Of a stretch of DNA of 64,000 nucleotides, positions 28,504-45,143 are shown piece after piece. The notes under the pieces were generated by a model. The model had not been told where the DNA came from and ran no database searches. It worked only from the letters and a program-made list of their open reading frames with translations. The DNA comes from Bacilli bacterium (GTDB lineage: Bacteria > Bacillota_I > Bacilli_A > RF39 > UBA660), in assembly GCA_017513865.1 (NCBI GenBank), contig JAFWMN010000032.1:16678-80677 (forward strand), written 5' to 3'. The position numbers and the translations under genes were made by a program. The number at the start of each line of letters is the position of its first letter. Positions within the stretch are counted from its first letter, which is position 1.

Positions 28504-28540
28504 AGAGAAGAATTATATATAATGTTCTTCTCTTTTTTTT
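28504..28540 (+). terminator. Rho-independent terminator (AGAGAAGAA N12 TTCTTCTCT followed by T8)
   Basis: 9-bp stem read from the sequence. Confidence 0.45.
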
Positions 28541-28610
28541 ATGGTTTCATTAACTCTCGTGCTCCTCCTTATAAAGCAAAAATTTTAACAAAAAAAATAG
28601 GAGGTAAAAT

Positions 28611-29078
28611 ATGAATGCAAATCCAAAAAGAAGAAAATATAGAGATAATCCTTATACATTAATGAATAATGAAGATGAATTTTGTATATTATTTATTGAT
28701 TCATCTAATAATGTTCAGATAATAGAGGTCCCAGAATTTGTTTATGATACTTTCAATCTTTTCGAACTTGAAGATCTTTCTCAAATGAATGAATATGATA
28801 GACACATCGAACATATGAGTTTTGATGACATTTCCTTTAGTAAAATTACAAATAAACAAAAAAGTTTAGAAGATGAAGTAATCAATAAAATTTTATGTGA
28901 CACTCTAAAAAAAGAAATATCGAAATTACCAGAAATACAGAAACGTAGACTTGTTATGTATTTTTTTAATGATATGAAATTAAAAGATATAGCACTTCTT
29001 GAAAATTGTTCCCCTAGAGCTGTAAAGTCAAGTATAGATATCTCTATTTCAAAATTAAAAAAAATATTAAAATATTAA
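28611..29078 (+). CDS. Sigma-70 region-4-like regulator (Tn916 Orf7-like / small sigma-like factor), copy A
   Basis: C-terminal PEIQKRRLVMYFFNDMKLKDIALLENCSPRAVKSSIDISISKLKK matches the region-4 HTH. Paralog of the 41859..42317 gene. Confidence 0.55.
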   Translation: MNANPKRRKYRDNPYTLMNNEDEFCILFIDSSNNVQIIEVPEFVYDTFNLFELEDLSQMNEYDRHIEHMSFDDISFSKITNKQKSLEDEVINKILCDTLKKEISKLPEIQKRRLVMYFFNDMKLKDIALLENCSPRAVKSSIDISISKLKKILKY

Positions 29079-29109
29079 AAATTAGACTTCAAAAAATAAG
29101 TATAAGTGA

Positions 29110-29158
29110 GGAATATAATGAAGGAGTTTTTTCTCTTTCATTATATTCCATTTTTTTA
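29110..29158 (+). terminator. Strong Rho-independent terminator (13-bp stem GGAATATAATGAA/TTCATTATATTCC followed by T7)
   Basis: Read directly from the sequence. Confidence 0.6.
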
Positions 29159-29167
29159 TGGAATTAA

Positions 29168-29379
29168 TGTTCTTTGAAAATTTAGTAAAAATAATCAAAT
29201 ACGTTCTTATTACTTTGAGCACATTAACAAGTACGCTTGCGAATAATACTTGGTTATAAATATTAATTTGCTTTTAATAATGCGATGACAAGAAATAAGT
29301 ATAATGATACTTCTACCCAGCCACAGACTCAACCAATGGGGGTAGTCCTGAATAGATCCAGGAAAGTGAAAATCTTATG
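29168..29379 (+). repeat. 212-bp conserved leader repeat, copy A (about 88% identical to 42389..42600). Contains TATAAT, a CTACCC...GGGTAG hairpin, an RBS and an ATG.
   Basis: Direct repeat found by eye. Both copies lie just downstream of a sigma-like gene and its terminator. Confidence 0.85.
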
Positions 29380-31344
29380 GAATTGATTAGCAATCAATCA
29401 TTTGATTATTACGTGAAACAAATTTTAATAATAAATTTAAAAAGAAAGGTTGTGGAAAAAATGAATTTAGATAATTTAAAATTATCAGGAGTCGGAGAAA
29501 TTCATTTAACAGATTCACTTAATGCATCATTGCTAAAGTTAAATGTTAAACTAAATTCTTCATCCGTGGCTCCAAACAGTAATGATTTGTTCATATATGT
29601 TGATAAAGCAGACATGAACAATCAAACAGATGAAAGAAAAGAATATTTATTTGATTTATCAAACCCATTAAAACAACTAAATGGAGTTAGTGATGAATTT
29701 AAATTAACAATTGAATTTGAAGAAAATGAAGCAATATTAAAAGCTTCCGTAAAAAGAATGATTGGAGTATCTGAAGAAATAGATTATGTATTAGATAGTC
29801 CTGTAATTGAAGAAATTGAAAGTTTTCCAATAACATTATTTGAAGGTGAAAACTATATTTATACAAATTATACAGGAGCAGTTATTGATTTAATGTATCC
29901 AAAAGATACAGAAGTAAATAGAATGTTTTTAAACAATGCTATTTATTACGGTCATAAATTAAAAAAAGATGGTGAATTTACTTTAGATGATATTTATTTC
30001 AAAGATGCATTTACAAAAACAGAAGACAAACTAAACTTAGAAGTGAATAATGCTAACATTGACTGTTTAACTTCTAGAAATAATAAATTTAGTTTAGACA
30101 GTGAAGGTAATTTAATAGTTAATAGTATTACTTCAAAAATACAGACTAATATTGCAGGAGAAGTTACCCTAGACGGTGAAGCATCAAAAATAGAGATTAC
30201 AAATCTAGATGCTTTAAATGACGGCGGTGTATATGAATTTATCGCTATTGGATATACCAATTCTACTACTCAAACAGATATTAGTGTTAAAATTAATGAC
30301 CAAACTTCAGGATATCATCATTGCTATATGAATGCTCAAGGTAATCGAGATAATAGTGGTGGTTTATCTACTAATTTCAATTATGTTCAGGACAGTGATG
30401 ATATAAATGAATTTTTACAAACAAATGGGTCAATTAATTCTTATCCAGTAGTTGTAGAAGGAAGACTATATATTTCGGAAAATTCTTCTAATCAAAAGAG
30501 AGTTAATTATAGTTTAAGACATTATAGAAGTGTTGCATCAGGACAGTCAATTTGTCTATTAGGTGGTGTATTTTCTCAATCATTTGAAAATATTAATTCA
30601 TTAAGTATTTCTTTAACTAACAGTTCAATTAAATTTTCTAAAGGCTCTAGACTAGTCGTATTTAATCCATTAAAGGGGGCAAAAGGTGACCAAGGGGAAA
30701 CTGGCGCTACAGGTCCTTCAAATTCAATAACTATTGGTACAGTAGTAGCGGGAAATGAAGCTAGTGCTACACTTACTGGTGAAAGTCCAAATCAGGTACT
30801 TAATCTTGTATTGCCAAGAGGTGAACAAGGAGAAGCCGGAGGAACAATGACGGTTTCTGAAGTTGAAAATTTAATTACCCAAAGACTTGGTACTTTATAT
30901 CCTGTGGGAAGTATTTATATGTCAGTAGTTGCAACGAATCCAAGTACGTTATTTGGTGGAACTTGGGAACAGCTTAAAGATAGATTTTTACTTGGCGCTG
31001 GAGATATTTATGAAAATGGTGCTACAGGTGGTAGTGCTGAATTACAAGCCCATTTTCATGGTATACCTTCTTTAAGTGGAACAGCTCAAAGTAATGGTGA
31101 TCATTCCCATGTCACATCAAGAAGAACTTCTACATATGGCTCAGGCATGCAGTCAAATTGGAGATGTATTACAGCCCCAGCATCAGCTAATGGAGATTAT
31201 ACTCAGATAAGTAATACTGAAAATGCAGGAGCTCACACACATACAGTAACAACTAATGCAAGCACTACAGAAAGCACAGGTAATGGTACAGCAGGAAATA
31301 TGCCACCATATTTAGCAGTCTATATGTGGAAACGTATTTCATAG
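29377..31344 (+). CDS. Phage tail-fibre-like protein with collagen-like G-X-Y repeats and a C-terminal tail-collar-type domain
   Basis: GAKGDQGETGATGPS...RGEQGEAGG collagen triplets. C-terminal PVGSIYMS...LFGGTWEQLKDRFLLGAG pattern of the phage tail-collar/fibre domain, then His-rich motifs. Confidence 0.6.
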   Translation: MELISNQSFDYYVKQILIINLKRKVVEKMNLDNLKLSGVGEIHLTDSLNASLLKLNVKLNSSSVAPNSNDLFIYVDKADMNNQTDERKEYLFDLSNPLKQLNGVSDEFKLTIEFEENEAILKASVKRMIGVSEEIDYVLDSPVIEEIESFPITLFEGENYIYTNYTGAVIDLMYPKDTEVNRMFLNNAIYYGHKLKKDGEFTLDDIYFKDAFTKTEDKLNLEVNNANIDCLTSRNNKFSLDSEGNLIVNSITSKIQTNIAGEVTLDGEASKIEITNLDALNDGGVYEFIAIGYTNSTTQTDISVKINDQTSGYHHCYMNAQGNRDNSGGLSTNFNYVQDSDDINEFLQTNGSINSYPVVVEGRLYISENSSNQKRVNYSLRHYRSVASGQSICLLGGVFSQSFENINSLSISLTNSSIKFSKGSRLVVFNPLKGAKGDQGETGATGPSNSITIGTVVAGNEASATLTGESPNQVLNLVLPRGEQGEAGGTMTVSEVENLITQRLGTLYPVGSIYMSVVATNPSTLFGGTWEQLKDRFLLGAGDIYENGATGGSAELQAHFHGIPSLSGTAQSNGDHSHVTSRRTSTYGSGMQSNWRCITAPASANGDYTQISNTENAGAHTHTVTTNASTTESTGNGTAGNMPPYLAVYMWKRIS

Positions 31345-31366
31345 TATTAGTGAAAAAGGTGATAAA

Positions 31367-34300
31367 ATGAATAATAATAAGTTTAACAGATTAAATAATA
31401 ATAGAAAACTGTCAAAAGAAGAAATTATGGCAAAAGTTAAAAAGGATTTAGAACCTGATAAAGGTATTGAAATTATATCTAAACGTGGAAAAAGGGAAAA
31501 GCATTTTTTGCAAAAAGATGGTACTATTGTTGCGAAAATATATTCTGACGACATTCATTTTCAAAAAAATAACAAATATGAAGAAATAGATAATACTTTG
31601 ATAAAAGAAGGAAAATATTATAGAAATAAAAATAATTCTTTTAAAGTATATTTTAAAAATAATAGTAAAGAAGATTTTCTTATTTATGAAATTGATGGTA
31701 GCAATTTGATTTTTAACATAACAGATGTTAATGATACTCAGGCAATTATTAGTGATACTGATACTAAATATGTTAAGAAAATTACATATAAAAACATATA
31801 TGAAGAAATAGATTTTGAATATTTGATAACCCCTACAAAAGTAAAAGAAAATATAATTATTAAAAATAAAGAATCATTAAAAAACGATATTAAGTTCATT
31901 TTGAAAACTGAATTATATTTAAAATATAATTCTGAAAAAAGTATAAGCGCAATAAAAAACGGTAAAGTATTGTTCAATTTAGAAGCACCATATATAATCG
32001 ATGCGAATGGCGATATTATCGATAATGTATCATATAAACTAAACAGTTTAGATAATGGATATGAACTATCTTTCATAATAAATAAGGATAAATTATCAGA
32101 TAATAATATTAATTATCCTATTATTATAGACCCAACCATCTCAACATATAGTGATGGCGAAGTTTATGATACATATATATACCCAGGAGATGCATCTGAT
32201 AATTGCAATAGTCATGATGTCTTAAAAGCTTGTGTTGAAAAGGTTAATGGGCAAAATAGAATTAATAGAAGTTTAATAAAATTTGACTTACCTACAATTG
32301 GAACCGGAAGTCAAATCTGCGAAGCAAGATTAAATTTGGTTGGTTATCCTTTATCTGATAATTGGTATGTTGGAAATAATGATAATAATTATATTGATGT
32401 ACATAGGATTACAGAAGATTGGAATGAAAGCAATGCAAAATGGAATAATATGAATGATAAATATGATCATAAAATAATAGACTCATCATATTTTGTTAAA
32501 GGTACAATAACATTTGAAGATACAGATTACACGTATACTGGATATTCTTCCTTCAATATCACTTCATTAGTTCAGAGTTGGTATACTGATAGTCAGAATT
32601 ATGGTGTTTTGCTTAAACAACATAATGAAACATATAATAGCAATTGTGAATTAGCTAAGTTTTATTCAAAAAATAATAATATTAGTGGCGATAACCCAAA
32701 ACCAACTTTAATTATAGTGTATAGAAATCAGAATGGTTTAGAATCATATATGAATTACCAATCACAAGCAATTACTAATGGTATGGTTTATCAGAATACG
32801 TTTAATGGAAATCTTATAGCAATGCTTCAAGTAGCACAGACAATTGGAAGTTATTTGCCTGTTAATTTAAACATTGTTTATAATACAAATGATGTTATTC
32901 TAAATAATAATAGAGGCTTAGGAATTGGGTTTAAATTCACATTATGGCAGACAATAAAAGAAGTCACCATCTCTGGAATTAATTATTTAGAATATTTAGA
33001 TGAAGATGGAACATTACATTATTTTATTAACGAAGATGGTGTATATAAAGATGAAGATAATTTGGAACTTTCTATAGAAAAAAATACTAGTTACTATTTA
33101 TTAACCGATAGATTTGGTAATAAAATGACATTTACAATAGTAAATAGTATAGGATATCTGACAAAGTATCAGGACACATCCAACAATACTATAACGATTA
33201 ATTATGATTCTTCCAATAGAATAATAGAAGTTGTTGACAGCAATAATAAAAATATAATAATTAATTATGATAATGATTTAGTTAGGGTAATAAGTGCTAA
33301 TAATACTGTATGCTTGAATTATTTATCTAATAAATTAGTTTCAGTTTCATATGATTCTGATATTATATCTTTTTCTTATAATGACAATAATTGTATATCA
33401 GAAATAATAAACACAGATGGTTTAAAACTACAATATGAATATTATGAAAAAACACCACATAAGATTAAAAAAGTAAAAGAATATGGGCTGAACAATGAAG
33501 AAGGGTCTTACTTTAGATTTGATTATGGACACAATATTACAAAAATTACTGATAATAAAAATAGAGTAACAACTATAAGTTTTAATGACTCAGGATTAGA
33601 AGTATGTACAAGTGATTTAAAGAATGAAAATGGAGTGTCGAATGCATATTCTATTTTTAACAAATATGGTGAAGATGATATATATAAAAATAAGTTAATA
33701 ACCGGTGGTATCCCAACAAAATATGTAAAGAACTATTTAAAGAACACAGGATTCGAAAATAACGAATTGTTTTTTGTTAAGAGCGATAATTTATTTGATT
33801 TATCATTAACTGAAGAACATGCTTATAATGGGAATAGAAGTTTAAAACTGTCAACAGAATTAAATGATAAAAATATAAGCTACTCGATTTCTGTTCCTAA
33901 AGGGAAATACTATACTTTTAGTTGCTATATTAAGAATAATGCCAAAGTAAAAATTGGATTATCCTACATAGATAGTAATAATAATAGCATTTCGAATAAT
34001 TCTGAATATATCATGCCATCTCAAAGATTTGAGCGAAATGAAGTTTCTATTTTTTATCCAAATGATTCTTTAAGTAATATATCTATAAATATATATCAGG
34101 AATTTGCAGGAATTACTTATATAGATAATATTCAGCTTGAAGAAGGCCAAATTGCAAACAAATTTAATTATATTGAAAATTCTGATTTTTCAGATGGTTT
34201 AACAGGATGGGATTTGTCTTCTGGTGATAATGATAACTCTAGATTTAGTATAGTAGCACTAGATGATAATAGCAAAGCTTTAAAAATTAATATGGATCCT

Positions 34301-37300
34301 ATTATATATACAAGCATTTATAAAGAATTTTATATTAATGGCAAAGCAGGTGAAAAGTATACAATATCGTTTTGGTACAAGGATAACGGTAATTCAAATC
34401 CTGAAAACAATTATGTTATTATTTCACCTAATTTTGAAGAATCATTGGAAACAGATTGGCATCCAGAAGAATCATTAAATTCAAGTGCTAACATTTGGCA
34501 ATATTTTTCAAAAACTATGACTATGCCAGCATCTTTTGATAAAATTGGAATATTACTATTGCAGCATGATGTTAATGAAATGTATATAACAAATATATCA
34601 CTTTACAAAGATGAAAATGAAAGTTCTTATAATTATGACGCTAATGGAAATGTTATAGGAATATATGACTATAACAAAAAAATTGGTTCATATAATTATG
34701 ATTCAAATAATCAAATGATAGGCTCAGCAAATAAAGATGGATGTACTACTTATTATGAATATGATAATCTAATTCATGACAAAATCCATAGGAATCTTAC
34801 TGATTTTGGTATGGTTAATGAGATAATGTATGATAGCAATAATAATCCTATTGTATCAAGAACTATAAAAAAAGGATATCAAAATGATAATACTGATGGC
34901 TTATATAGTATAAGAATTAAAGGAAGTAACACTTATGTGAGAAATATTAGAAATCAAGTTGTTCTTTGTTCTAACTGTGGAATTCATGATTTGTGGAATG
35001 TTAGAAAATATAATGATGATTTTTATACAATTAGCCATTCAATTCTACTAAATAAATTTTTTACTGTCACAAATAATAAATTGACTTTGTGTGATTTTAA
35101 TGAACAAAAATCTTTATTCAAACTAACAAGAAATAAAAATGGTAGTTTTTCAATACAGGATTATAATAATAAATACTTAAAGGTTGATAATAATTTATTA
35201 ATATTGTCAGACTATTCACAAAATGATAGTAATTTTGAGTTTTACTTAGAAAATAGTGTTGGAAAGCAATTTATTGAAGGGAATACTAAATATAATAACA
35301 ATGGAAAATATATTGAAGAGACAATAGATAGCGGCTTATTTACTAGAAAGTATGTTATAGATGAAAATACTGGACATATTGAAAAAATAACTTCATCAGA
35401 TGGAAATGTTACTATTTATGAATATGATGAAGATGAAAAAATTAGTAAAGCAATAAACTTTGACAGAAAAATTATTTATAATTATAACGACAACAAGTGC
35501 TTAAAAGAAATAGTAGTTGGAAATAAAGTTTATAAGTTTATATATGATGACTTCTTAAATATTTCTGAAGTTTTATTAAATAATAATTATTCATTGATAA
35601 AAAGTAATTATGAAAATAATAATGGGGTAGTTTTATCTACAAAATATGGAAATAATGATTTAACATATTATACTTATGATGAGTTTGATAGGTTAAAAAC
35701 TATTACTAGAGGAGACGATGTATATACTTTTATTTACAACAATAATGGTCATTTAGTGAGAATAGTATCGAATAATCATGAAGAAAGATTTATTTATAAT
35801 GAAAATGGTAAATTAGACAGATATGAGTTTGACAATTTTAAGATAAAGTATTCAGAGTCAGATGATGGTATAAGTCACTTTAATGAGTTTGTAATAATAG
35901 AAGGAGAGAATAGTCATTCTGAGCAGATGAATTTTCAATATGTGAATAATAATATTGGGTGCTTAAATTTTGATAATAACAATATTCAATATAGTTATGA
36001 TGAAATAGGAAGATTGATTAAATCTAATATTAATAACAGCATTGATGTTACAATAGAATATTTAAGAAATGGAAATCGCATGACTTCATTAGTTAAAAAA
36101 TACAAATATTACAATAATACATATTTATATAAATATAATAAATCCGGTTTTATTACTCATGAATATATAAATGGAAAACTGAATCACAAATATTACTATA
36201 ATCACTATAATGAATTAATAAAAGAAGATGATTATAAGTTAAGTCAAACAATAAAGTATAATTATGATTTGTATGGAAATTTACTAGAAAAGCGAATTTA
36301 TAAAATTAACAGTTTTGAATTATTAGATCAGATAAAGTATGAATATAATACTAATTGGGAAGATCAATTAGTTGAATTTAACGGAGAAGAAATATTATAT
36401 GACGCAAGTGGAAATGTAACAAATATTAATAATAGAGTTACTTTAACGTGGTCAAATGGTAAGCAATTAGATAAATATCAAGATAATGAGGGTAATATAA
36501 TTATGTATAATTATTCTCATGATGGACTGAGAATAGGAAAAAACATAAATGGAAATGAAATAAAGTATTATTTAGATGGTCATAATATTATATTTGAAAA
36601 AGATGGATTAAATATGATATACTATATACGTGATAACAAGGGTAATCTTTTAGGATTTAAATATAATAATGATTTATATTATTATGTTAAAAATGTTCAA
36701 GAAGATATAATTGGAATTTTAAATTCTAACTATCAGTGCGTTGCAAAATATAGCTATGATAGCTGGGGTAATATTGTTTCAATTACTGATTCTAATGATA
36801 ATGATATTAGTCAGATTAATAATCATATTGCTAACATAAACCCTTTCAGATATCGTAGCTACTATTATGATAAAGAGACATCTCTTTATTATTTAAATAG
36901 TCGTTATTATAATCCTAAATGGGGAAGATTTATAAGTGCTGATGGAATTATAGGAGTTTCAGATTTTATGGGATTCAACTTATATCAATATGCTTTTAAT
37001 AATCCGATAAATTATTCAGATTCAGATGGACATTTTAGTGTACTAGCCGCTATTGTTGGTGGTGTTGTAATAGCAGGAGCATATTCTCTTATTAAAAAAG
37101 CAACTAATTCTAGTAGCAAAAAATCAAACAAGAAGAGTTCATCATCAAAAAACAAAAATAATAAAAAAAATAGTTCCAGTGTATCATCAGCAAGTTCAGT
37201 AGCAAGTGCAGGTGCTCAAAGAGCCTCTAGTAGTCTATCATCTTTAGCAGTTACTTGTACGTATAAAACTCCAAAGAAATATCATTATGAAGATGCAATT

Positions 37301-37765
37301 AAGCAAGCAGAATGCTTTGTTAAGGCTTATGGCATAACTAAAGAAACACATTATAGTCGTAATGATAACTATAATAAACTGCCACTAACTCATCAGAAAG
37401 AGGCGTTTAAATATCATTTTGTTCCAATGCAAAATTCTAGTTGTCATAATATAGGAACAAAAGGTAATACTAAGTATGTTGGACCTATAGAAACAATAGT
37501 TGTAAATGGAAAAGTTATTACAATTCAAAAGGAAGTCGTTTTTGATCCAAGAGGATTTATAGTTACTGATCCTAATAATTATGGAACAGCTAATTTTGCA
37601 CCAAGAATTGAGGGAATAGAAGACAAGGAACTACAAAAAGAAAATCACGATAGACATTATGCTTATGATGTAGCTGCATGGATTTTATGGGGTAATAGTG
37701 AAGATGATACAACATCTATTGAGCAGAGAATAAATGCATATCATAAGTGGAAACCAAAAAAATAA
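31367..37765 (+). CDS. Rhs/YD-repeat polymorphic toxin (2132 aa) with tandem CBM-like domains, an inserted ricin-B-like beta-trefoil, an Rhs core, a TM helix plus Ser/Lys linker, and a variable C-terminal toxin domain
   Basis: Many YD repeats (YDxxGN, YxYDxxxR). Core end motif RYRSYYYDKETSLYYLNSRYYNPKWGRFISADGI. No signal peptide or LXG domain. Confidence 0.85.
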   Translation: MNNNKFNRLNNNRKLSKEEIMAKVKKDLEPDKGIEIISKRGKREKHFLQKDGTIVAKIYSDDIHFQKNNKYEEIDNTLIKEGKYYRNKNNSFKVYFKNNSKEDFLIYEIDGSNLIFNITDVNDTQAIISDTDTKYVKKITYKNIYEEIDFEYLITPTKVKENIIIKNKESLKNDIKFILKTELYLKYNSEKSISAIKNGKVLFNLEAPYIIDANGDIIDNVSYKLNSLDNGYELSFIINKDKLSDNNINYPIIIDPTISTYSDGEVYDTYIYPGDASDNCNSHDVLKACVEKVNGQNRINRSLIKFDLPTIGTGSQICEARLNLVGYPLSDNWYVGNNDNNYIDVHRITEDWNESNAKWNNMNDKYDHKIIDSSYFVKGTITFEDTDYTYTGYSSFNITSLVQSWYTDSQNYGVLLKQHNETYNSNCELAKFYSKNNNISGDNPKPTLIIVYRNQNGLESYMNYQSQAITNGMVYQNTFNGNLIAMLQVAQTIGSYLPVNLNIVYNTNDVILNNNRGLGIGFKFTLWQTIKEVTISGINYLEYLDEDGTLHYFINEDGVYKDEDNLELSIEKNTSYYLLTDRFGNKMTFTIVNSIGYLTKYQDTSNNTITINYDSSNRIIEVVDSNNKNIIINYDNDLVRVISANNTVCLNYLSNKLVSVSYDSDIISFSYNDNNCISEIINTDGLKLQYEYYEKTPHKIKKVKEYGLNNEEGSYFRFDYGHNITKITDNKNRVTTISFNDSGLEVCTSDLKNENGVSNAYSIFNKYGEDDIYKNKLITGGIPTKYVKNYLKNTGFENNELFFVKSDNLFDLSLTEEHAYNGNRSLKLSTELNDKNISYSISVPKGKYYTFSCYIKNNAKVKIGLSYIDSNNNSISNNSEYIMPSQRFERNEVSIFYPNDSLSNISINIYQEFAGITYIDNIQLEEGQIANKFNYIENSDFSDGLTGWDLSSGDNDNSRFSIVALDDNSKALKINMDPIIYTSIYKEFYINGKAGEKYTISFWYKDNGNSNPENNYVIISPNFEESLETDWHPEESLNSSANIWQYFSKTMTMPASFDKIGILLLQHDVNEMYITNISLYKDENESSYNYDANGNVIGIYDYNKKIGSYNYDSNNQMIGSANKDGCTTYYEYDNLIHDKIHRNLTDFGMVNEIMYDSNNNPIVSRTIKKGYQNDNTDGLYSIRIKGSNTYVRNIRNQVVLCSNCGIHDLWNVRKYNDDFYTISHSILLNKFFTVTNNKLTLCDFNEQKSLFKLTRNKNGSFSIQDYNNKYLKVDNNLLILSDYSQNDSNFEFYLENSVGKQFIEGNTKYNNNGKYIEETIDSGLFTRKYVIDENTGHIEKITSSDGNVTIYEYDEDEKISKAINFDRKIIYNYNDNKCLKEIVVGNKVYKFIYDDFLNISEVLLNNNYSLIKSNYENNNGVVLSTKYGNNDLTYYTYDEFDRLKTITRGDDVYTFIYNNNGHLVRIVSNNHEERFIYNENGKLDRYEFDNFKIKYSESDDGISHFNEFVIIEGENSHSEQMNFQYVNNNIGCLNFDNNNIQYSYDEIGRLIKSNINNSIDVTIEYLRNGNRMTSLVKKYKYYNNTYLYKYNKSGFITHEYINGKLNHKYYYNHYNELIKEDDYKLSQTIKYNYDLYGNLLEKRIYKINSFELLDQIKYEYNTNWEDQLVEFNGEEILYDASGNVTNINNRVTLTWSNGKQLDKYQDNEGNIIMYNYSHDGLRIGKNINGNEIKYYLDGHNIIFEKDGLNMIYYIRDNKGNLLGFKYNNDLYYYVKNVQEDIIGILNSNYQCVAKYSYDSWGNIVSITDSNDNDISQINNHIANINPFRYRSYYYDKETSLYYLNSRYYNPKWGRFISADGIIGVSDFMGFNLYQYAFNNPINYSDSDGHFSVLAAIVGGVVIAGAYSLIKKATNSSSKKSNKKSSSSKNKNNKKNSSSVSSASSVASAGAQRASSSLSSLAVTCTYKTPKKYHYEDAIKQAECFVKAYGITKETHYSRNDNYNKLPLTHQKEAFKYHFVPMQNSSCHNIGTKGNTKYVGPIETIVVNGKVITIQKEVVFDPRGFIVTDPNNYGTANFAPRIEGIEDKELQKENHDRHYAYDVAAWILWGNSEDDTTSIEQRINAYHKWKPKK

Positions 37766-37785
37766 ATAGTTGAGGGGAGATAAAT

Positions 37786-38571
37786 ATGAAGAGAATATTA
37801 GGAATTATAATAATTTGCGTAATAATTATAATTACTTGTATTATTTCAATTTTTCGTACATTAAATAGTATGCATTTTAAGTATATCGAGAGGGGCGTAA
37901 AAATTGTTAATAGTAATATTTATCGTTTAAACCTTGCTATAGAAGATGAAAATGAACAAGAAATAAAAAAAATGATAAAAACGATTAATCTTAATAAGTT
38001 ACCATTTTTTTATGAACGAAATGTTATTGAAGAAACCAAGGAACAATACATGAATATTTCCCCATTATCTACCGCCTGCTGGATGGGAAATTATAAAATA
38101 GTTCAGATGTTAATTGAAAATGGTGCAGACGTTAATTATAGAGGGAATTCTTATAATTATTATCCGATTGAACATGCATTAATATATTATGGTATGACAG
38201 AAGATAGATATAAAATTGCAAAGCTATTAATAGAAAAAGGCTCAAAAATAAATGTACGAAGTAGTAATCAAAATTTGTTAGTTTCCTTTTTAATGGCTAA
38301 TTATATTGATAATGATGAATTAAATTCTAAACAAGCTAGATTATGTTTGAAAACAATAAAACTACTTATTAATAAATATAACTATAGTACTGATGAATTA
38401 AATGCCATTTTAGTTGCATCGGTTAAAAGTAATAATTTTATTGTTGCAAAATATCTGATAGAAAATTCTATGCTTTATGATAATAATCAACTTAAATTAA
38501 AAGAATTGTTATTAGAAATTGCAAAGTCCAATGAAAACAAGTCAATGATTGAGTACTTACAAAGTAAATAG
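37786..38571 (+). CDS. Ankyrin-repeat protein, putative immunity protein for the Rhs C-terminal toxin
   Basis: Ankyrin-like repeats (SPLSTACWMGNYKIVQMLIENGADVN...). Immediately downstream of the toxin gene in the canonical toxin/immunity arrangement. Confidence 0.6.
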   Translation: MKRILGIIIICVIIIITCIISIFRTLNSMHFKYIERGVKIVNSNIYRLNLAIEDENEQEIKKMIKTINLNKLPFFYERNVIEETKEQYMNISPLSTACWMGNYKIVQMLIENGADVNYRGNSYNYYPIEHALIYYGMTEDRYKIAKLLIEKGSKINVRSSNQNLLVSFLMANYIDNDELNSKQARLCLKTIKLLINKYNYSTDELNAILVASVKSNNFIVAKYLIENSMLYDNNQLKLKELLLEIAKSNENKSMIEYLQSK

Positions 38572-38695
38572 TTTATTTTTCTTATATTATTTAAAATAGT
38601 TTTATTAGTTAGTACATAATTGATTTTGTCAACTATAATTTAGTTGAATTTAATTACTTTATGTATTTCTAATTAATAAGGAAGGATGGCGAAAA

Positions 38696-39553
38696 TTGAG
38701 TGATATACTCAACATGCATATGACATTGGAAAGTAAAAAAATGAGCAATTACTATAAAAAATTTAAAAGTGGTAAAATAAGTATTGAAGAATTTGAAAAA
38801 GCGAAAAAAGAAGGTTATTTATTTGATTTTCCTACATATCTTGAACACGATGATATACTAAAGCAAATTAAATATTTTGTAAGTCAAATATCAAAAAAAG
38901 ATGTAGCTAATGCATTTCTCTATAGTTTAACAACAAGAAGACTTGAATATAGATCAATTTTAGGTTCATATTGGTATGCCGTAGCTTTATTTCCACACAA
39001 AAAACATAATCGTTATGGAACTGATGGATTTTGCGATATATGTGATTGGATGGATATGCCAAAAGATACACCTGAAAATGAAAAAAAATGGTATCATTAC
39101 AAATATAATATTTATAATTATGATAGATATAGAGTTGGGGGCATTGTACATACAAATGTCAATTATGTAATGTTTGATTTGCGTGAATTTCTAAAAATGC
39201 CAAAAGTTGAGCCAACACAAAAAGACAAAGAAATACTTTTGAAAACACTTCATCTTATTGATGATTTGAAATTAAATAACAAAGCTGGAACATATAGAGA
39301 TTACATTGTGAAAAATAAATTGTTCCCTACTAATAAAAATGAAATCGCTCAATTTTTAAATATACTAGGTGTCTGTGGAGTTTTATCAAGCGATATGTAT
39401 CCATGTTATGATGAATATTATGTTCCTGCGGATGGTTCTAGAGACCCAATTGAGTATTTAAATGATTTTCGCTATCCATTGAATAGATGGAAAGTAGCTG
39501 ATGGTATCAATAAAAAACGCTTTAAAAAAGTATTTGGTTTTGAATATAGATAA
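38696..39553 (+). CDS. Hypothetical protein (285 aa), possibly an orphan immunity or accessory protein
   Basis: ORF with a TTG start. Position in the polymorphic-toxin locus only. Confidence 0.35.
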   Translation: MSDILNMHMTLESKKMSNYYKKFKSGKISIEEFEKAKKEGYLFDFPTYLEHDDILKQIKYFVSQISKKDVANAFLYSLTTRRLEYRSILGSYWYAVALFPHKKHNRYGTDGFCDICDWMDMPKDTPENEKKWYHYKYNIYNYDRYRVGGIVHTNVNYVMFDLREFLKMPKVEPTQKDKEILLKTLHLIDDLKLNNKAGTYRDYIVKNKLFPTNKNEIAQFLNILGVCGVLSSDMYPCYDEYYVPADGSRDPIEYLNDFRYPLNRWKVADGINKKRFKKVFGFEYR

Positions 39554-39723
39554 TATTAAGCAAGATATTGAATATAGTCTCATCAATTTGTTTTCTTCAT
39601 TTACACTAAAAAGATAACTAATATTTGCAAAAGGAATATTATTATAAAACACACAAAATAGCAAAAAATTAAAGAATCTTTGATATTTATTCAAAGATTC
39701 TTTAATATTTATGAAAGGAAATT

Positions 39724-40026
39724 ATGATAGAAATAGTATTAAATTGGTTTATACCTTTTATTTTAACTGCTATATTTGGATATATAGCAAAAGAACTTAA
39801 AGAAAATAAAAAACATGATGAAGCCATGCGTAACAGCATGGTTTTATTATTACGTAGTCAAATAACAGGAAAATGCGAAAATTATTTAAGAATGGGTTTT
39901 CTACCAGATTATGCAAGGAGTTGCTTAGAAGATTTATATAAGCAATATGAATCTTTAGGAGGAAATCATGGAGTAAATAAATTGGTTGATCAAACTTTTA
40001 ACCTAAAACCATTAAAGGAGGATTGA
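39724..40026 (+). CDS. Small protein with an N-terminal TM helix (100 aa)
   Basis: ORF with a GAAAGGAAA RBS. Upstream of the holin/endolysin pair. Confidence 0.35.
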   Translation: MIEIVLNWFIPFILTAIFGYIAKELKENKKHDEAMRNSMVLLLRSQITGKCENYLRMGFLPDYARSCLEDLYKQYESLGGNHGVNKLVDQTFNLKPLKED

Positions 40027-40030
40027 TACT

Positions 40031-40282
40031 ATGGAAATTTATTATATGTCTATTGTTGCAATGATGACTTTTGTCTTTGGTGCAATAAACAAAGCATATT
40101 TTGAAAGTATGCCAAATAGATTTATACCAATTCAAAATGTTTTTATTGGATTAATATCAGGAATTATTTGTTATTTCGGTCATTTAGAAAGTGATTTGTT
40201 AGAATCTATTGTTTTATGCATAATGGCAGCTATGAGTTCAGGAGGAGTTGCCGATATGAAGGATATTGTTAAACGTGATTAA
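40031..40282 (+). CDS. Putative holin (83 aa, 2-3 TM helices)
   Basis: AAAGGAGG RBS, hydrophobic helices and a charged C-terminus. Overlaps the start of the GH25 lysin gene. Confidence 0.5.
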   Translation: MEIYYMSIVAMMTFVFGAINKAYFESMPNRFIPIQNVFIGLISGIICYFGHLESDLLESIVLCIMAAMSSGGVADMKDIVKRD

Positions 40283-41294
40283 AAAAGGTATAGATGTATC
40301 TAAATGGCAAGGGATTATAGACTGGAATAAAGTTAAAAATAGTGGTATTGAATTTGCTATTATAAGAATTGGCTTTGGTAAATTTATTAACCAAAAAGAC
40401 ACCTGTTTTGAAAGAAATTATAGAGAAGCTAGAAATAGTGGTATACCTATAGGTGTATATCATTATAGCTATGCTACTTCTGTAGAAGAGGCAAAAGAAG
40501 AAGCAAAATGTGTTGTAAGATGGTTAAATGGCAGAAAACTAGATTTACCTGTTTATTTCGATATAGAAGATAAATCTCAGAGTTCGTTAAATAAAAATAT
40601 ATTAAATTCTATGTGTGAAGCTTTTTGCAATATTATTGAAAAAGCTGGTTATTGGGCCGGAATATATTCAAACAAATATTGGGCCACATCAATTATTGAT
40701 GGTGCAAAATTAGGTAGTAGATATACGTATTGGATTGCACAATATAATAATGAATGCACTTATAAAGGAAATTATGATATATGGCAATATAGCTCCTCTG
40801 GTAGTGTAGATGGAATAATAGGAAATGTAGATATGAATTATATGAATAGAGATTTAATTTCAGAAATCAACAATCCTAACGACAAATCTAATATAGAAAA
40901 TAATAACAAAGAGAACAATATACTTGATTTAAGCAATTATAATGGAAAATCAATTGTAGATGGATTAAAAAGTATAGGGGTAGATAGTTCTTTTGAAAAC
41001 AGAAGTATTATATATAGAAATATGGGGTTTATTGATGAATATATTGGAAGTAGTATTCAAAATATAAATCTTCTAAATAGACTAAAACATAAATCTATAA
41101 ATACTTTCTATCCTAAATATAATGGAAATAGTGATTCTATAGTAGATGCCTTAAAGTCATTAAATGTTGATAGTTCTATAAATAATAGAAAAATAATAGC
41201 AAAAATTAATAACATCGATAATTATACGGGAAGTGCTATTCAAAATATACAATTACTAAGATTATTAAAAAATGGCCAATTAAAGAAAAAATAA
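40266..41294 (+). CDS. GH25 muramidase (endolysin-like, no signal peptide) with two about 45-aa C-terminal putative cell-wall-binding repeats
   Basis: Start KKGIDVSKWQGIIDWNKVKNSGIEFAIIRIGFG is the GH25 signature. Internal repeats LKSIGVDSS.../LKSLNVDSS.... Confidence 0.8.
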   Translation: MLNVIKKGIDVSKWQGIIDWNKVKNSGIEFAIIRIGFGKFINQKDTCFERNYREARNSGIPIGVYHYSYATSVEEAKEEAKCVVRWLNGRKLDLPVYFDIEDKSQSSLNKNILNSMCEAFCNIIEKAGYWAGIYSNKYWATSIIDGAKLGSRYTYWIAQYNNECTYKGNYDIWQYSSSGSVDGIIGNVDMNYMNRDLISEINNPNDKSNIENNNKENNILDLSNYNGKSIVDGLKSIGVDSSFENRSIIYRNMGFIDEYIGSSIQNINLLNRLKHKSINTFYPKYNGNSDSIVDALKSLNVDSSINNRKIIAKINNIDNYTGSAIQNIQLLRLLKNGQLKKK

Positions 41295-41858
41295 AAGTAT
41301 ATAATAATTTTAATACGCTTTTTTCGATATAAATATTAAATTAAATAATATAATAACAAAAATCATTTTTTATAAAGTAAATTATTTCTTATATTCTGTA
41401 AATAATTAGATATATTATTCGCTTTATTTTATAGACTATTATAAAATTATTGGTAACTATATGTTATATATATTTCTTTCAGACAAAAAAGTACACCATT
41501 CGGAACACTTATATAAAAAAAAGAGAATATTGAATATAATAAAGGCCATCAGCAATTACAAGGGTATGTTAAAGGACTATTGTAATGAAGAAAAAGGGGA
41601 TTTATCCTTTTTCATCGGCGAATCTAACATATACTTTGTATAATGTTCCGTTCATTGTAATTGCAATAGGTGGTTACTATGAACGAAAAATGTTATTTGT
41701 TATGCTGTTTGCTATGTGATAACTCAAGAAGTTTGTCTTCTAGGGCTGTGTCTTTTACTCATTTTAAGAGTAGGAGATGCAGCCCTCTTTTTTTGTGCTC
41801 TTTTTTAGTTAGAGGACCACCTATCCTTTCAATTAAAAAAATTGAAAGGAGTTACGAG

Positions 41859-42317
41859 GTGGATAAAAGACCAATAAGAAGAAAGTATAGAGATAATCCT
41901 TATTTACTAGAAAGCATTAAAGAAAAGAATATATATATTATTAAATTTAATGATATAAATGGAAAACATGAAGTAGTAGTAGACAAGGATATTTTTGATT
42001 TATTTGATAAAAATGAGAAATATGAAAACGCTAGATATTTTGAATATTCTAAACATTTATTTCATAATGAAATTAACTATTCGCAAATTAAATCTAATTA
42101 TTCTTTAGAAGATGAGGTTATAAATAATCTATCTCTTAAAGAATTAAAGTACACTATTGAAATGCTGCCTGATATTCAGAAAAGAAGAATTAAAAAATAT
42201 TATTTTGAAGAGAAAACTTTAGAAGAAATTGCTATGGAAGAAGGCTGTTCAAAAGTTGCAATTAAGTATTCTATTGATAGTGCATTGAGAAAAATATCAA
42301 AAATTTTCAAAATATGA
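41859..42317 (+). CDS. Sigma-70 region-4-like regulator, copy B (GTG start)
   Basis: Paralog of 28611..29078 (RRKYRDNPY...LPDIQKRRIKKYYFEEKTLEEIAMEEGCSKVAIKYSIDSALRKI). AAAGGAG RBS before GTG at 41859. The ORF-track start at 41670 gives an implausible Cys-rich extension. Confidence 0.55.
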   Translation: MDKRPIRRKYRDNPYLLESIKEKNIYIIKFNDINGKHEVVVDKDIFDLFDKNEKYENARYFEYSKHLFHNEINYSQIKSNYSLEDEVINNLSLKELKYTIEMLPDIQKRRIKKYYFEEKTLEEIAMEEGCSKVAIKYSIDSALRKISKIFKI

Positions 42318-42346
42318 CTTAACTTTTTCACGATTTCGCTACTAAA

Positions 42347-42382
42347 GGGTGAGAGTGTAAAAAACTTCTCACCCTATTTTTT
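42347..42382 (+). terminator. Rho-independent terminator (GGGTGAGAG N11 TCTCACCC followed by a T-run)
   Basis: Read directly from the sequence. Confidence 0.55.
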
Positions 42383-42388
42383 AGGTTT

Positions 42389-42600
42389 TGTTCTTTGAAA
42401 ATTTAGTGTCATTTATCAAATACGTTCTTATTACTTTGAGCACATTAACAAGTACGCTTGCGAATAATACTTGGTTATAAAAATAAAGTGGCTCTTTATT
42501 ATGTAATGACGAGTAATAAGTATAATGATACTTCTACCCAGCCACAGACTCAACCAATGGGGGTAGTCCTGAATAGAAACAGGAAAGTGAAATTCTTATG
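42389..42600 (+). repeat. 212-bp conserved leader repeat, copy B. Its ATG opens only a 3-codon ORF (ATG AAA CTG TAA).
   Basis: Paralog of 29168..29379. Confidence 0.85.
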
Positions 42601-42729
42601 AAACTGTAAAGCCGGCAGTTGTTTGATAAATCCCAACTGAGGGAATGAGAAATATATCAGATATGATTAAGTAAAAAATATCCAAGACTTTTTGTCTTGG
42701 TTTATACATATGAAAGGTTAGTGAAAAAA

Positions 42730-42921
42730 ATGAAAGAATATCAAATAGATTTAAAATTAATTTTATCTAGCAAATTTTTACAAAGTGGGAAAAATAAGAA
42801 GGAAATAAGAGATAAAGTTACTAATGTCATAATAGAAGCTTTAAAAAATGATAAGACTTTAAAAATATTATTTAATAATGAAATTCCTGTATATATAATG
42901 GATATAAGTGAAAATGAATAG
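42730..42921 (+). CDS. Candidate antitoxin (63 aa) overlapping the MazF-like gene
   Basis: Small ORF whose stop overlaps the start of the toxin gene. Shows no recognisable antitoxin fold. Confidence 0.3.
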   Translation: MKEYQIDLKLILSSKFLQSGKNKKEIRDKVTNVIIEALKNDKTLKILFNNEIPVYIMDISENE

Positions 42922-43276
42922 AAGAGAAATTAGAAGAGGAGATATTTATACAGCAATTTTAGAATTGGGAATTGGCTCTGAACAAACTGGGATTAGACCT
43001 GTACTTATCATTCAAAATAATGTAGGAAATATATATAGTAATACAACTATAATCGCACCTATTTCATCATCATATACAAAACATGATATTCCAACTCATG
43101 TTTTTTTAAATAATAAAGATTACTTATATAACAGTTCAATTATTTTATTAGAACAAATACGAGTAATATCTAAAAATAGATTAGGTCACTACATAGCACA
43201 TCTAAGCGATAAAAAAATGAAAGATGTTGACAATGCAATATTAAAGTCATTGGGAATAAAAAAAAACAAAATTTAA
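42908..43276 (+). CDS. PemK/MazF-family mRNA interferase toxin
   Basis: RRGDIYTAILELGIGSEQTGIRPVLIIQNNVGNIYSNTTIIAPISS is characteristic of the MazF/PemK family. Confidence 0.65.
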   Translation: MKMNRREIRRGDIYTAILELGIGSEQTGIRPVLIIQNNVGNIYSNTTIIAPISSSYTKHDIPTHVFLNNKDYLYNSSIILLEQIRVISKNRLGHYIAHLSDKKMKDVDNAILKSLGIKKNKI

Positions 43277-43359
43277 AAATATGAGGAGGCAGAGCATTAT
43301 AGAAAAATGTAATTTTTATAAAATAAATAACATAGAATTGGAAGTAGGGAGGAATATTT

Positions 43360-43578
43360 ATGTATAAAACAATAGAGTTTTACGATAATAATGGCTGTGA
43401 CTTAAAAGAGGTACTAAAAAGTTGTATATATAAATATTACATTGAAAATAAAAATTTACTAATAAACAAAAAAAGCAAACTTGAAACGGACGAGAAAAGT
43501 AGTATAATAAAAGCGACTAATAAAGTGAAAAAGTTGTCTAATGAAAGGAGTAAGAAATGTACCCTAAGTACAAATTAG
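43360..43578 (+). CDS. Small protein (72 aa) directly upstream of and overlapping the serine recombinase gene. Candidate recombination directionality factor.
   Basis: Strong RBS GGGAGG. Position only. Confidence 0.3.
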   Translation: MYKTIEFYDNNGCDLKEVLKSCIYKYYIENKNLLINKKSKLETDEKSSIIKATNKVKKLSNERSKKCTLSTN

Positions 43579-45143
43579 GAAAGACAACATTTAAAATAGC
43601 CATTTATATAAGGCTTTCAAGAGAAGATGGAGATGATTTAGAATCTGAAAGTGTCACAAATCAGAGAAGCTTATTACTTGGTTATTTGAAAGCACAAAAT
43701 TTAGAACATGTCGATATATATATTGACGATGGATACACAGGAACAAATTTCGAACGTCCAGAATTCAAAAGAATGCTTGAAGATATAAAAAATGGGAAAA
43801 TAAATATGGTTATTACAAAAGATCTTTCAAGATTAGGCCGTGACCATATAATGACAGGTTACTATGTTGAAACCTATTTTCCTGAAAACGATGTTAGATA
43901 TATTGCAGTAAATGATGACATAGACACATTCTACGAAACAAGTGGTTCTGATATGATGCCGTTTAGATTAAGTATGAATGACATGTATGCGAAAGATATA
44001 TCTAAAAAAGTTCGCTCAAATCTACTTCAAATGAAAAAAGATGGAAAATTTTGTGGTAGTTCTGCCTCATATGGATATATGAGAGATCCATTAGATAAAC
44101 ATAAATTAATACCAAATCCAGAAACTGCACCAGTAGTAAAAAGGATATTTGACTTATATGTTGCAGGATATGGTAGTTCCCAAATCGCTGAAATATTGAC
44201 TAGAGAAGAATTACCTACGCCAATTATGTATAAACATTCTGGTGCTAAATTGAATAGATTCAATCATCCTGAAATATGGAAACATACTACAGTTAGCAAT
44301 ATCATTAAAAATAGAGTATATATTGGAGATTTAATTCAGCACAAATTTCAAAAAATCAATTATAAAATTAAGAAAAGAAAAGCAGTACCAGAAAATGAAT
44401 GGTTTATAAAAGAAAATGCACATGAGCCACTTATTGATAAGAAAACTTTTCAAATAGCACAATCCATAAAAGATTCTTCTAATAATTATGATCCAAATCG
44501 TAGAAAAGTAAATTACGTCTTATCTGATTTAGTTTTTTGTAAAGATTGTGGTGCTAGAATGAGCATTAGTTATGATAAAAAAAGAGATAGAACCACAATG
44601 AATTGTAATAACTATCGCAAATTTAGCAAATATGATATATGCTTTTCACATTATATTAACTATAAAAAACTAGAAAAGACAGTATATGACAAACTAAGAA
44701 GTATGGCTAGTAAGTATGATAACAATAAAGAAGAATTTGAAAGAATTATTAAAAATGAATATACAGATCCTAAAGCTGAAAAAATAAAAAAGATAGATGA
44801 GTTAAACATTAAGATTACAGATTTGAAAAGAAAACAAGATTCATTATATGACGATAAGTTTAATAATATTATTACTGTGGAAACATATCAGAGATTATTT
44901 AATAATGCTGAAGAAGAAATTAATATTGCAAAGAGTAAACTAAAAATATTAAAAAAAGAAGTATCTAGTATTCAAAAAGAAAATTCTGACTATAACGAAT
45001 ATTTAGAAATAGTAGAAAATTTCTTAAAAATGAAAAATCCTACTAAAGAAATAATGAATAGATTAATAGAAAAAATCTATATAACAAAAGATAAGACATT
45101 AGAAATTCATTATCGAATAAAGAAAAATGAACTTACAGTATAA
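43557..45143 (+). CDS. Large serine recombinase (TndX/TnpX/SpoIVCA/SprA-like)
   Basis: Resolvase-type N-domain with catalytic Ser in IYIRLSREDG and the DGYTGTNFERPEF...ITKDLSRLGRD motif. 528 aa with a Cys-containing and coiled-coil C-terminal region. Its 3' end is 69 bp from the element junction. Confidence 0.9.
   Translation: MYPKYKLGKTTFKIAIYIRLSREDGDDLESESVTNQRSLLLGYLKAQNLEHVDIYIDDGYTGTNFERPEFKRMLEDIKNGKINMVITKDLSRLGRDHIMTGYYVETYFPENDVRYIAVNDDIDTFYETSGSDMMPFRLSMNDMYAKDISKKVRSNLLQMKKDGKFCGSSASYGYMRDPLDKHKLIPNPETAPVVKRIFDLYVAGYGSSQIAEILTREELPTPIMYKHSGAKLNRFNHPEIWKHTTVSNIIKNRVYIGDLIQHKFQKINYKIKKRKAVPENEWFIKENAHEPLIDKKTFQIAQSIKDSSNNYDPNRRKVNYVLSDLVFCKDCGARMSISYDKKRDRTTMNCNNYRKFSKYDICFSHYINYKKLEKTVYDKLRSMASKYDNNKEEFERIIKNEYTDPKAEKIKKIDELNIKITDLKRKQDSLYDDKFNNIITVETYQRLFNNAEEEINIAKSKLKILKKEVSSIQKENSDYNEYLEIVENFLKMKNPTKEIMNRLIEKIYITKDKTLEIHYRIKKNELTV

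Follow-up and report, generated by a model that had tools for sequence, protein, structure and literature searches.

The window analysed here, a stretch of 64,000 nucleotides (nt) from contig JAFWMN010000032.1 (assembly GCA_017513865.1), contains what its gene content marks as an ICE (integrative conjugative element), in which the same arrangement occurs twice: a small gene for a protein with a sigma-region-4 domain, an intrinsic terminator and one copy of a conserved direct repeat (cassettes A and B; Table 1). An initial annotation of the window had proposed that the two proteins are paralogous and that a strong terminator follows each gene. Both points were confirmed, the proteins being 38-39% identical (E 3e-30) with Pfam region 4 matches in each. 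The repeat (29168-29406 and 42389-42627) begins about 90 nt after gene A and about 70 nt after gene B. The two copies align without gaps over 239 nt at 87% identity and form the longest direct repeat of the window; the repeat had been reported as 212 bp at about 88%, so its existence stands and its length had to be corrected.

The Rfam pemK RNA (RF02913) matches both copies, at 29301-29380 with 43.8 bits in copy A and at 42522-42601 with 46.1 bits in copy B (gathering score 34.8), and it also exceeded the gathering score in 12 of 12 relatives tested. This match covers only the last third of the repeat, the Rfam model having 61 consensus positions that correspond to a junction (J) and helices H5-H7. 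Conserved RNA extends beyond the model by about 130 nt on the 5' side and about 30-60 nt on the 3' side, and a long-range helix closes it. The CTACCC...GGGGTAG hairpin noticed initially is real and corresponds to H5 of this RNA and to P1 of Rfam pemK.

The fold was derived from an alignment of 35 sequences (A3), on which both the RNAalifold consensus and the counts for the named structure (ten helices with 60 pairs, namely H1-H8 and the pseudoknot helices 9 and 10) are based. In the long-range helix H1, ...TCATCAAAT pairs with GTTTGATGA... about 200 nt away and closes the domain. Inside it lie H2, which encloses H3 and H4, then the unpaired, near-invariant junction J with the consensus (A/T)TAA(T/A)GATACT, then H5-H7, which make up the Rfam motif, and H8. 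The RNAalifold consensus contains 51 pairs, 43 of them with compensatory changes. In the named structure, 95.7% of the cells assigned to pairs are paired compared with 81.9% after shuffling, and 51 of the 60 pairs are changed on both sides compared with 28.8 in the shuffles. The covariation score was 0.474 against 0.221 for shuffled alignments, with none of 500 shuffles reaching it, and it fell to 0.07-0.15 when the 3' partners were slid by 1-3 columns. For pseudoknot helices 9 and 10, 84-88% of the cells are paired and 8 of the 9 pairs are changed on both sides. The 3' pseudoknot (A3 columns 347-386), whose loop pairs with a downstream TATCAGT-like word, is present in copy B and most relatives and missing in copy A and in Tn916. 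A pair-by-pair check of H1-H8 found standard pairs throughout both window copies except for one in H6, and the single-sequence minimum-energy fold of copy B also yields H1, H4, H5, H6 and H8. Since the z-scores of single-sequence folding are unremarkable (-1.3 to -2.1), the case for the fold rests on covariation. On that evidence the repeat is a structured RNA of about 240 nt with an eight-helix core, and not a leader composed of promoter, ribosome binding site (RBS) and ATG. A match below threshold to a second Rfam family, the dinG RNA (RF03082), was also seen at 29303-29403 in copy A (31.8 bits, gathering score 46.9). The dinG model has the junction, H5, H6 and H8 in common with the window RNA, and the dinG RNA probably represents a sister branch within this family.

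One member of the family has been characterised experimentally. canT, described in 2024 from one element, Tn916, is a cis-acting, orientation-specific, processive antiterminator RNA which is active under a foreign promoter and without other Tn916 genes, and which allows read-through of three heterologous terminators in series (Wirachman & Grossman 2024, PMC11658703). The Tn916-type element on pCF10 (locus L081, with orf7 at 2391-2813, orf8 at 2810-3040, xis at 3501-3704, and int) was reached by tblastn with the Xis sequence; blastn of the window leader against PLSDB plasmids gave no matches. An nhmmer profile that represents the window-type family and contains no Tn916 sequence matches L081 3161-3431 (E 2.7e-16), starting at the same GTTCTTTGAAAA block (L081 3161-3172) that opens both window copies, and Rfam pemK is found in Tn916/Tn925 at L081 3323-3423 with 55 bits. 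When the coordinates of the canT paper (PMC11658703) were mapped onto this locus, the active 452-bp fragment corresponded to 3166-3617, starting inside the GTTCTTTGAAAA block, and the inactivating 162-bp deletion to 3269-3430, which takes out the whole pemK motif. The inactivating mutation S3 (ATA to TGC, nt 283 after orf8) fell on 3323-3325, the three bases that open the pemK motif and lie in the near-invariant junction. The S3-equivalent bases are ATA in both window copies, and in the family alignment the 3' A of these columns is invariant and the T nearly so. These alignments place the canT interval of Tn916 and the window RNA in the same RNA family, by homology and not by mere resemblance. 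MAFFT misplaces Tn916 at H1, H3, H4 and H8; aligned by hand, H1 (AATCGAAT/GTTCGATT) and H8 (AGCTTT/AAAGCT) pair, and H1 also appears in the Tn916 centroid fold. In Tn916, orf8 is immediately followed by a highly stable hairpin (-31.9 kcal/mol) whose tail is U-rich.

The initial annotation had likened the repeat to the Tn916 region between orf7/orf8 and xis/int. This likeness holds as homology over the whole core between orf8 and xis, but not as the attenuation circuit then supposed, since canT is a processive antiterminator (PMC11658703). The suggestion that the hairpin might be an antitermination target pointed in the right direction. The canT paper says nothing of pemK, Rfam or covariation and states that structural analysis was taken no further and that no comparative analysis had been made (PMC11658703), and no paper linking canT with the pemK motif was found in the literature searched.

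The distribution of the cassette was studied from both of its components. Starting from the protein, 80 genomic loci encoding relatives of the sigma-like protein were collected. The RNA follows 72 of the 83 related sigma-4-like genes, 50-120 nt past the stop codon, as GTTCTTTGAAAA and then about 240 conserved nt, a recurrence across other genomes that rules out chance. With a fold-based detector, a hairpin with a T-run was called between gene and RNA at 63 of 72 loci (median -24.4 kcal/mol), and a weaker terminator-like site between the RNA and the first gene at 48 of 68 (median -15.3 kcal/mol). The usual downstream genes encode a protein of about 67 amino acids (aa), a PemK toxin, small proteins of the HTH_17 (Xis-like helix-turn-helix, HTH) or DUF6870 type, and a serine or tyrosine recombinase. 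The PemK toxin gene is the first or second downstream gene at copy B and in about half of the relatives; the context of copy B is the canonical one, and also the one behind the Rfam name pemK.

A metagenome scan starting from the RNA was run to avoid the protein-first bias, and nhmmer confirmed 100 of 120 pattern matches. At 50 of the 79 loci with at least 650 nt upstream (about 63%), a sigma-4-like or orf7/orf8-like gene stands directly upstream: window-type at 29, a Tn916-type orf7 and/or orf8 homologue at 12 and a third sigma-4-like family at 9 (MAYNKAREEKKW..., e.g. L084 and L106; the metagenome loci are L084-L203). At the remaining loci the upstream genes are of the DeoR-type HTH kind (L089, L122, L127) or Rep_trans genes, or nothing recognisable is found. 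After Rep_trans genes (L110, L160) the RNA follows at 300-700 nt, and the repetitive spacer there gives spurious SLYGAKKIF-like open reading frames (ORFs). The pairing of sigma-4 gene and RNA is frequent and not obligatory. A scan of viral contigs found only 2 relatives, and the cassette is therefore not typically a phage feature.

The protein encoded upstream had been called sigma-like. Its Pfam (Sigma70_r4 or Sigma70_r4_2) and NCBIfam matches are limited to the C-terminal third in both proteins and lie below the family cut-offs. In an AlphaFold model of protein B (pLDDT 81.6), an N-terminal sheet of three strands and one long helix precede four helices, and Foldseek retrieved sigma region 4 structures only, over about 60-75 C-terminal residues, with a root-mean-square deviation of 1.2-2 Å in the best matches. 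Sigma region 2 is absent from the Pfam and NCBIfam matches and from the model, in which the N-terminal part is a beta-sheet domain. A full sigma-70 factor combines region 2, which binds core polymerase and recognises the -10, with region 4; as far as the model and the profile matches go, this is a sigma-4 protein, and the sigma likeness applies to its region 4 fold but not to the domain in front of it. Against Tn916 Orf7, BLASTP gave E 0.02 and hhalign a probability of 56% (E 1e-4) over 42 columns of region 4 only; size and architecture agree, with Sigma70_r4_2 at the C-terminus. The protein may be an activator of the promoter of its unit, or else a helper bound to polymerase.

Taken together, it is probable that each cassette combines a sigma-4 protein, binding DNA or RNA polymerase, with a canT-family RNA that makes polymerase terminator-resistant in cis. 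The data show the homology to canT, the fold with its covariation, the conservation of gene order and where the terminators lie; within this reading, we infer the antitermination activity, the role of the protein, the start of transcription and the hard-stop role of the long stems described below. The nascent RNA would fold during transcription, H1 closing the domain that holds H2-H8, and would then act in cis on its own polymerase and cause read-through of intrinsic terminators over many kb. Under RNA B, polymerase would transcribe the PemK toxin-antitoxin (TA) genes and the gene for the serine recombinase. Once the ICE has excised and circularised, polymerase would run over the joint and on through the genes for partition, relaxase, coupling protein and type IV secretion, which point the same way, pass the short-stem internal terminators of the transfer region and stop at the 17-bp terminator after gene A. 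RNA A would act likewise on the 12-kb operon for the tail-fibre-like protein, Rhs toxin and lysis, with the 19-bp terminator upstream of gene B as its end. In analogy to Tn916 Orf7/Orf8, the sigma-4 protein would activate transcription of its unit. Polymerase could enter either by read-through of the preceding terminator or from a promoter squeezed between terminator and H1. In the accepted Tn916 model, Orf7/Orf8 activate Porf7 and transcription continues into xis-int (PMC5812530).

The candidate genes of the ICE (1249-45143) are all on the + strand, with a few short overlapping ORFs on the minus strand. Only two + strand terminators in the ICE have stems of at least 15 bp, with 17 bp at 29110-29149 and 19 bp at 41742-41786; stem lengths are 5-11 bp in the others (2557, 5116, 10951, 22886, 27628 and 28402). 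Terminators of pLS20 are resistant to processive antitermination when their stems measure about 15 bp, typical stems being 9 ± 2 bp (PMC10325885), and by this analogy the long stems at 29110 and 41742 are proposed as candidate antitermination-resistant "hard stops". Co-direction on the + strand and short-stem terminators fit the Tn916 scheme, in which transcription crosses the joint once the element has excised. It is possible that a single switch controls both excision and toxin cargo, as had been suggested initially.

Several observations weigh against the antiterminator reading. The activity is inferred for the window copies from homology to one characterised member, and the central helices H3 and H4 are not alignable with Tn916. 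Copy A has neither the 3' pseudoknot nor the downstream terminator common to most relatives, and no + strand intrinsic terminator was detected within its operon (29461-41294), so that the need for antitermination there is not obvious. Tn916 canT works without orf7/orf8 in the reporter, and the sigma-4 protein may therefore play no part in antitermination. Finally, a strong terminator precedes the GTTCTTTGAAAA block by about 10-20 nt and H1 by about 30-40 nt, with no convincing sigma-A promoter in between; a sigma-A promoter scan gave nothing above shuffles near either copy. The GTTCTTTGAAAA block holds a possible -10, GAAAAT, without a sigma-A -35, and a partial copy of the terminator 5' arm occupies the would-be -35 place. 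TTGAAA in the invariant block was rejected as a -35 because the covarying 5' strand of H1 would lie upstream of the start, and a promoter of the extracytoplasmic-function type was rejected for unsuitable spacing.

The partial copy of the terminator 5' arm is found after the U-run at 29159-29168 (TGGAATTAAT) and is present in most loci, where it covaries with the terminator arms among relatives (e.g. GGAAACAGGTG ... GGAGCAGGATG). Pairing with the 3' arm is one possibility; alternatively, it may serve as a repeated binding site for a protein where the -35 of a promoter for the RNA would lie.

A large structured RNA that has highly conserved unpaired junctions and a pseudoknot, and that is separated from the first gene by a hairpin with T-run at most loci, might also be a local, non-processive riboregulator, either a riboswitch or a protein-binding leader, controlling only the adjacent downstream terminator-like hairpin. 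This is unlikely: no alternative pairing was found between the RNA core and the downstream terminator, several relatives as well as copy A have no such terminator, and the Tn916 homologue passes a series of heterologous ones.

The initial annotation had read the repeat as a leader with a TATAAT promoter, an attenuator hairpin and an RBS with ATG, under the control of the sigma-like factor encoded upstream. Both window copies do contain TATAAT, a GGAAAG stretch and ATG, and the gene for the sigma-4 protein is directly upstream. However, TATAAT is TTAAAG in most relatives and sits in the unpaired, almost invariant RNA junction, and since H1-H4 lie upstream of it and covary, the transcript would have to start well upstream. 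The supposed RBS and ATG correspond to H7 and a conserved A/GUG, both part of the RNA; at each of the 65 further family loci that allowed this codon to be located, it opens no more than 3-24 codons. The 3-codon ORF of copy B has no significance, and the ATG of copy A (29377), which had been taken as the start of the tail-fibre-like gene, happens to be in frame with it. That gene most probably starts at the ATG at 29461, which has its own RBS and where the homologue in L067 begins equivalently with MNL.... With the homologous Tn916 segment acting as a processive antiterminator under a foreign promoter (PMC11658703), the promoter-leader explanation is decidedly unlikely, and the initial interpretation as a whole is partly supported.

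An element specific to pemK, for instance a target of the PemK endoribonuclease serving TA autoregulation, would agree with the PemK toxin gene near copy B and in about half of the relatives. It is very improbable, as no pemK lies downstream of copy A, L067, L068, the L059 group or Tn916, the RNA is four times the size of the Rfam motif, and its linkage to the upstream sigma-4 gene and to recombinases is tighter.

The relation between the two copies was examined separately for protein and RNA. The RNAs are about 86% identical and the proteins 38-39%, which is the highest RNA identity among 759 cassette pairs whose proteins are 30-48% identical (mean 68, standard deviation 7). The closest relative of each protein lies in another genome, and that of each RNA is the other window copy. 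Both RNAs have a derived H5 (CTACCC/GGGTAG) in common, and H4 and H8 differ between them by paired changes. This indicates that the copies were homogenised by gene conversion, or co-adapted to the same host polymerase, and does not point to a recent duplication of the whole cassette; homogenisation is likely. A recent neutral duplication or recombination scar without function, for which the excess of RNA over protein identity might speak although it points to gene conversion within the element, has a negligible chance. Across more than 170 independent loci, one of them experimentally active, the block is conserved with compensatory changes, and this covariation throughout the family refutes neutral duplication as a complete explanation; the paired changes in H4 and H8 also speak against it. 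Absence of the repeat from related elements had been named beforehand as a sign of neutral duplication, and the repeat is present in them, after 72 of 83 related genes as described above.

A broader proposal is offered tentatively and at rather low confidence. The sigma-4-only protein and the canT-type RNA could form a portable "read-through cassette", bracketed by antitermination-resistant long-stem terminators, that mobile elements of Firmicutes place before any long operon. The protein would supply promoter recognition for the RNA or dock on the polymerase flap. In the ICE, a cascade would lead from gene B to RNA B, to excision and transfer, to gene A as the last gene of that unit, to RNA A and finally to toxin and lysis, and the orphan pemK and dinG motifs of Rfam would all be polymerase-modifying antiterminators. 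If this were true, the covariation-supported fold would be the first usable structural model of canT.

Table 1. Features of the two cassettes and of the operons that follow them (positions in the window; the two strands of a helix are separated by a slash, the two copies by a semicolon).
Feature	Position	Strand	Evidence or remark
Sigma-region-4-like gene A, 155 aa, Orf7-like partner of cassette A	28611..29078	+	Pfam Sigma70_r4_2 E 2.2e-8, residues 99-141 only
Sigma-region-4-like gene B, 152 aa, GTG start	41859..42317	+	Pfam Sigma70_r4 E 1.6e-5; 143 homologues found
Terminator after gene A, 17-bp stem 29110-29149 and U-run	29110..29158	+	-24 kcal/mol, z -5.5
Terminator after gene B, 10-11-bp stem 42346-42375 and U-run	42346..42383	+	-16.8 kcal/mol, z -3.4
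Opening block GTTCTTTGAAAA, copy A, nearly invariant, unpaired	29169..29180	+	Alignment A3 columns 1-12
Invariant block GTTCTTTGAAAA, copy B	42390..42401	+	Alignment A3
canT-family RNA core, copy A	29191..29409	+	Rfam pemK, nhmmer core profile E 4e-54, covariation
canT-family RNA core, copy B	42412..42630	+	Rfam pemK, nhmmer E 3e-53, covariation
H1, copy A; copy B	29191-29200/29400-29409; 42412-42421/42621-42630		
H2, copy A; copy B	29207-29211/29294-29298; 42428-42432/42515-42519		
H3, copy A; copy B	29225-29233/29247-29256; 42446-42454/42468-42477		
H4, copy A; copy B	29262-29266/29274-29278; 42483-42487/42495-42499		
Junction J, copy A; copy B	29299-29312; 42520-42533		S3-equivalent bases 29301-29303; 42522-42524
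H5, copy A; copy B	29313-29323/29337-29345; 42534-42544/42558-42566		
H6, copy A; copy B	29346-29351/29359-29363; 42567-42572/42579-42584		
H7, copy A; copy B	29364-29366/29374-29376; 42585-42587/42595-42597		
H8, copy A; copy B	29382-29386/29394-29398; 42603-42607/42615-42619		
3' pseudoknot, copy B	42633..42662	+	CCC...GGG, loop CTGA pairing to downstream TCAG
Hairpin CCAAGAC-TTTTT-GTCTTGG and TTTATACAT, short-stem terminator-like candidate "soft stop" between RNA B and first gene	42682..42709	+	-10.2 kcal/mol
Long-stem terminator between copy A operon and gene B, 19-bp stem 41742-41786 and U-run	41742..41795	+	-30.3 kcal/mol, z -6.5
Copy A operon	29461..41294	+	Pfam
Tail-fibre-like gene, Gp10_C domain (phage baseplate)	29461..31344	+	Pfam
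Rhs gene, 2132 aa	31367..37765	+	Pfam
Ankyrin protein, possible immunity	37786..38571	+	
Unannotated ORF, 285 aa	38696..39553	+	
Small unannotated ORF	39724..40026	+	Holin-like by position only
Small unannotated ORF	40031..40282	+	Holin-like by position only
GH25 muramidase with DUF3597	40266..41294	+	Pfam
Copy B unit	42730..45143	+	
Putative antitoxin, 63 aa	42730..42921	+	
PemK/MazF toxin	42908..43276	+	Pfam PemK_toxin E 5e-29
72-aa protein	43360..43578	+	
Large serine recombinase	43557..45143	+	Resolvase, Recombinase and Zn_ribbon_recom

By its gene content, the host element is an ICE of about 44 kb that is neither of the Tn916 type nor a phage. It encodes ParA, ParB, a DUF3991/Toprim protein, a MobA/VirD2-type relaxase, a VirD4-type coupling protein, a VirB4-like ATPase, a CHAP hydrolase, a sortase, a thioester adhesin and, at the right end, a large serine recombinase. 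A prophage, to which Gp10_C, the GH25 lysin and the small holin-like ORFs might point, was rejected on account of the ParA/ParB, relaxase, coupling protein, VirB4 and CHAP genes. The ICE (about 1128-45212) interrupts spoIVA. The N-terminal fragment (765-1145) ends with ...GPRMVHTPW at about 1128, and the C-terminal part (45213-46325) resumes with WYEEAIPF... at about 45213, the right end of the ICE lying after the recombinase gene at about 45212. The split falls at the conserved ...TPW|YEE... position, and the right end bears a degenerate copy of the target (KGYHENRSYW vs KGYEDENGPRMVHTPW). With its large serine recombinase, the ICE resembles the skin-type intervening elements of sporulation genes.

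The gene order of the copy B unit is the commonest downstream order in the RNA family. For copy A, the order of sigma-4 gene, RNA, Gp10_C-like gene and Rhs-like gene recurs in two other genomes, in L067 (from 6331) and L068 (from 1287), and the arrangement is therefore a recurring module; the order within the operon suggests release of the Rhs toxin that depends on lysis or a holin. The 5' regions of the sigma-4-like genes (41742-41858 and 28402-28610) are also conserved across genomes; each comprises a terminator with a long stem, a word like GGTGTAGAAGTCCACC and, abutting the RBS, a hairpin (arms TCAATTTG...CAAATTGA, and TTTCAATT...AATTGAAA in copy B); that of copy A has a CTCCTCC word with potential pairing to the GGAGG of the RBS. 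In the transfer region, 16605-17864 and 5163-7572 hold a gene for a eukaryotic-type Ser/Thr protein kinase and one for a surface protein with thioester domain and SpaA repeats, together with its sortase. Outside the ICE, the adjacent paralogous genes 54465-55553 and 55562-56521 (54459-56521, minus strand) give rise to a further direct repeat, D2, of 201 nt and 73% identity.

Processive antitermination of long horizontally acquired operons is known from RfaH/ops, LoaP, EAR and HK022 put, in the case of RfaH including conjugation and toxin operons. The components of these systems are unrelated to those described here, being NusG paralogues or different RNAs. The second RNA copy before the Rhs toxin and lysis operon suggests that the same device ensures full-length expression of long cargo operons, a parallel to RfaH in Gram-negative bacteria.

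The same logic is found in conAn, the bipartite antitermination system of pLS20-type plasmids (Miguel-Arribas et al. 2021, PMC8191782), in which a small protein gene and a large RNA head a long conjugation operon with internal terminators, and long-stem terminators act as resistant ends (PMC10325885). In conAn, however, protein gene and RNA belong to one transcript, whereas a terminator separates them in the window, and there is no sequence relation. Membership in this system was rejected: ConAn1 corresponds to PF17362 (pXO2-34 domain; PMC8191782), and no such match was found at E <= 0.01 among the window proteins, only sigma region 4.

In Rfam, pemK and the related dinG (RF03082) are candidate motifs of Weinberg et al. 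2017 (PMC5737381), and pemK is filed as a cis-regulatory element of unknown mechanism; copy B lies upstream of a pemK gene and copy A does not. canT is a member of a large RNA family that reaches well beyond Tn916-like elements and is already partly in Rfam, where its name is misleading. Support is good for the family's eight-helix fold, which a long-range helix closes and which has the known loss-of-function mutation in its near-invariant junction, and through this fold the mechanism becomes directly testable.

The canT RNA of Tn916 is among the closest known systems. The homologous stretch takes in the entire core, beginning at the GTTCTTTGAAAA block and reaching the end of the pemK motif and H8. 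As in Tn916, copy B is preceded by an Orf7-like sigma-4 gene and a long hairpin and followed by the recombination genes, at the right end of the ICE, and the genes are co-directional, letting transcription cross the joint after excision. The window element differs in its MobA/VirD2-type relaxase, VirD4-type coupling protein, serine recombinase and insertion in spoIVA, and it has no homologue of Orf8 (HTH_16). It also has two RNA copies, one of which heads a toxin cargo operon, a PemK TA pair between RNA B and the recombinase gene, and the extra 3' pseudoknot that copy B has in common with most relatives. The kind of element is already known, as canT and as Rfam pemK; what is new here is that canT is equated with the pemK motif, that the fold is supported by covariation, that the family has spread to an ICE not of the Tn916 type, and that a second copy stands before an Rhs toxin operon.

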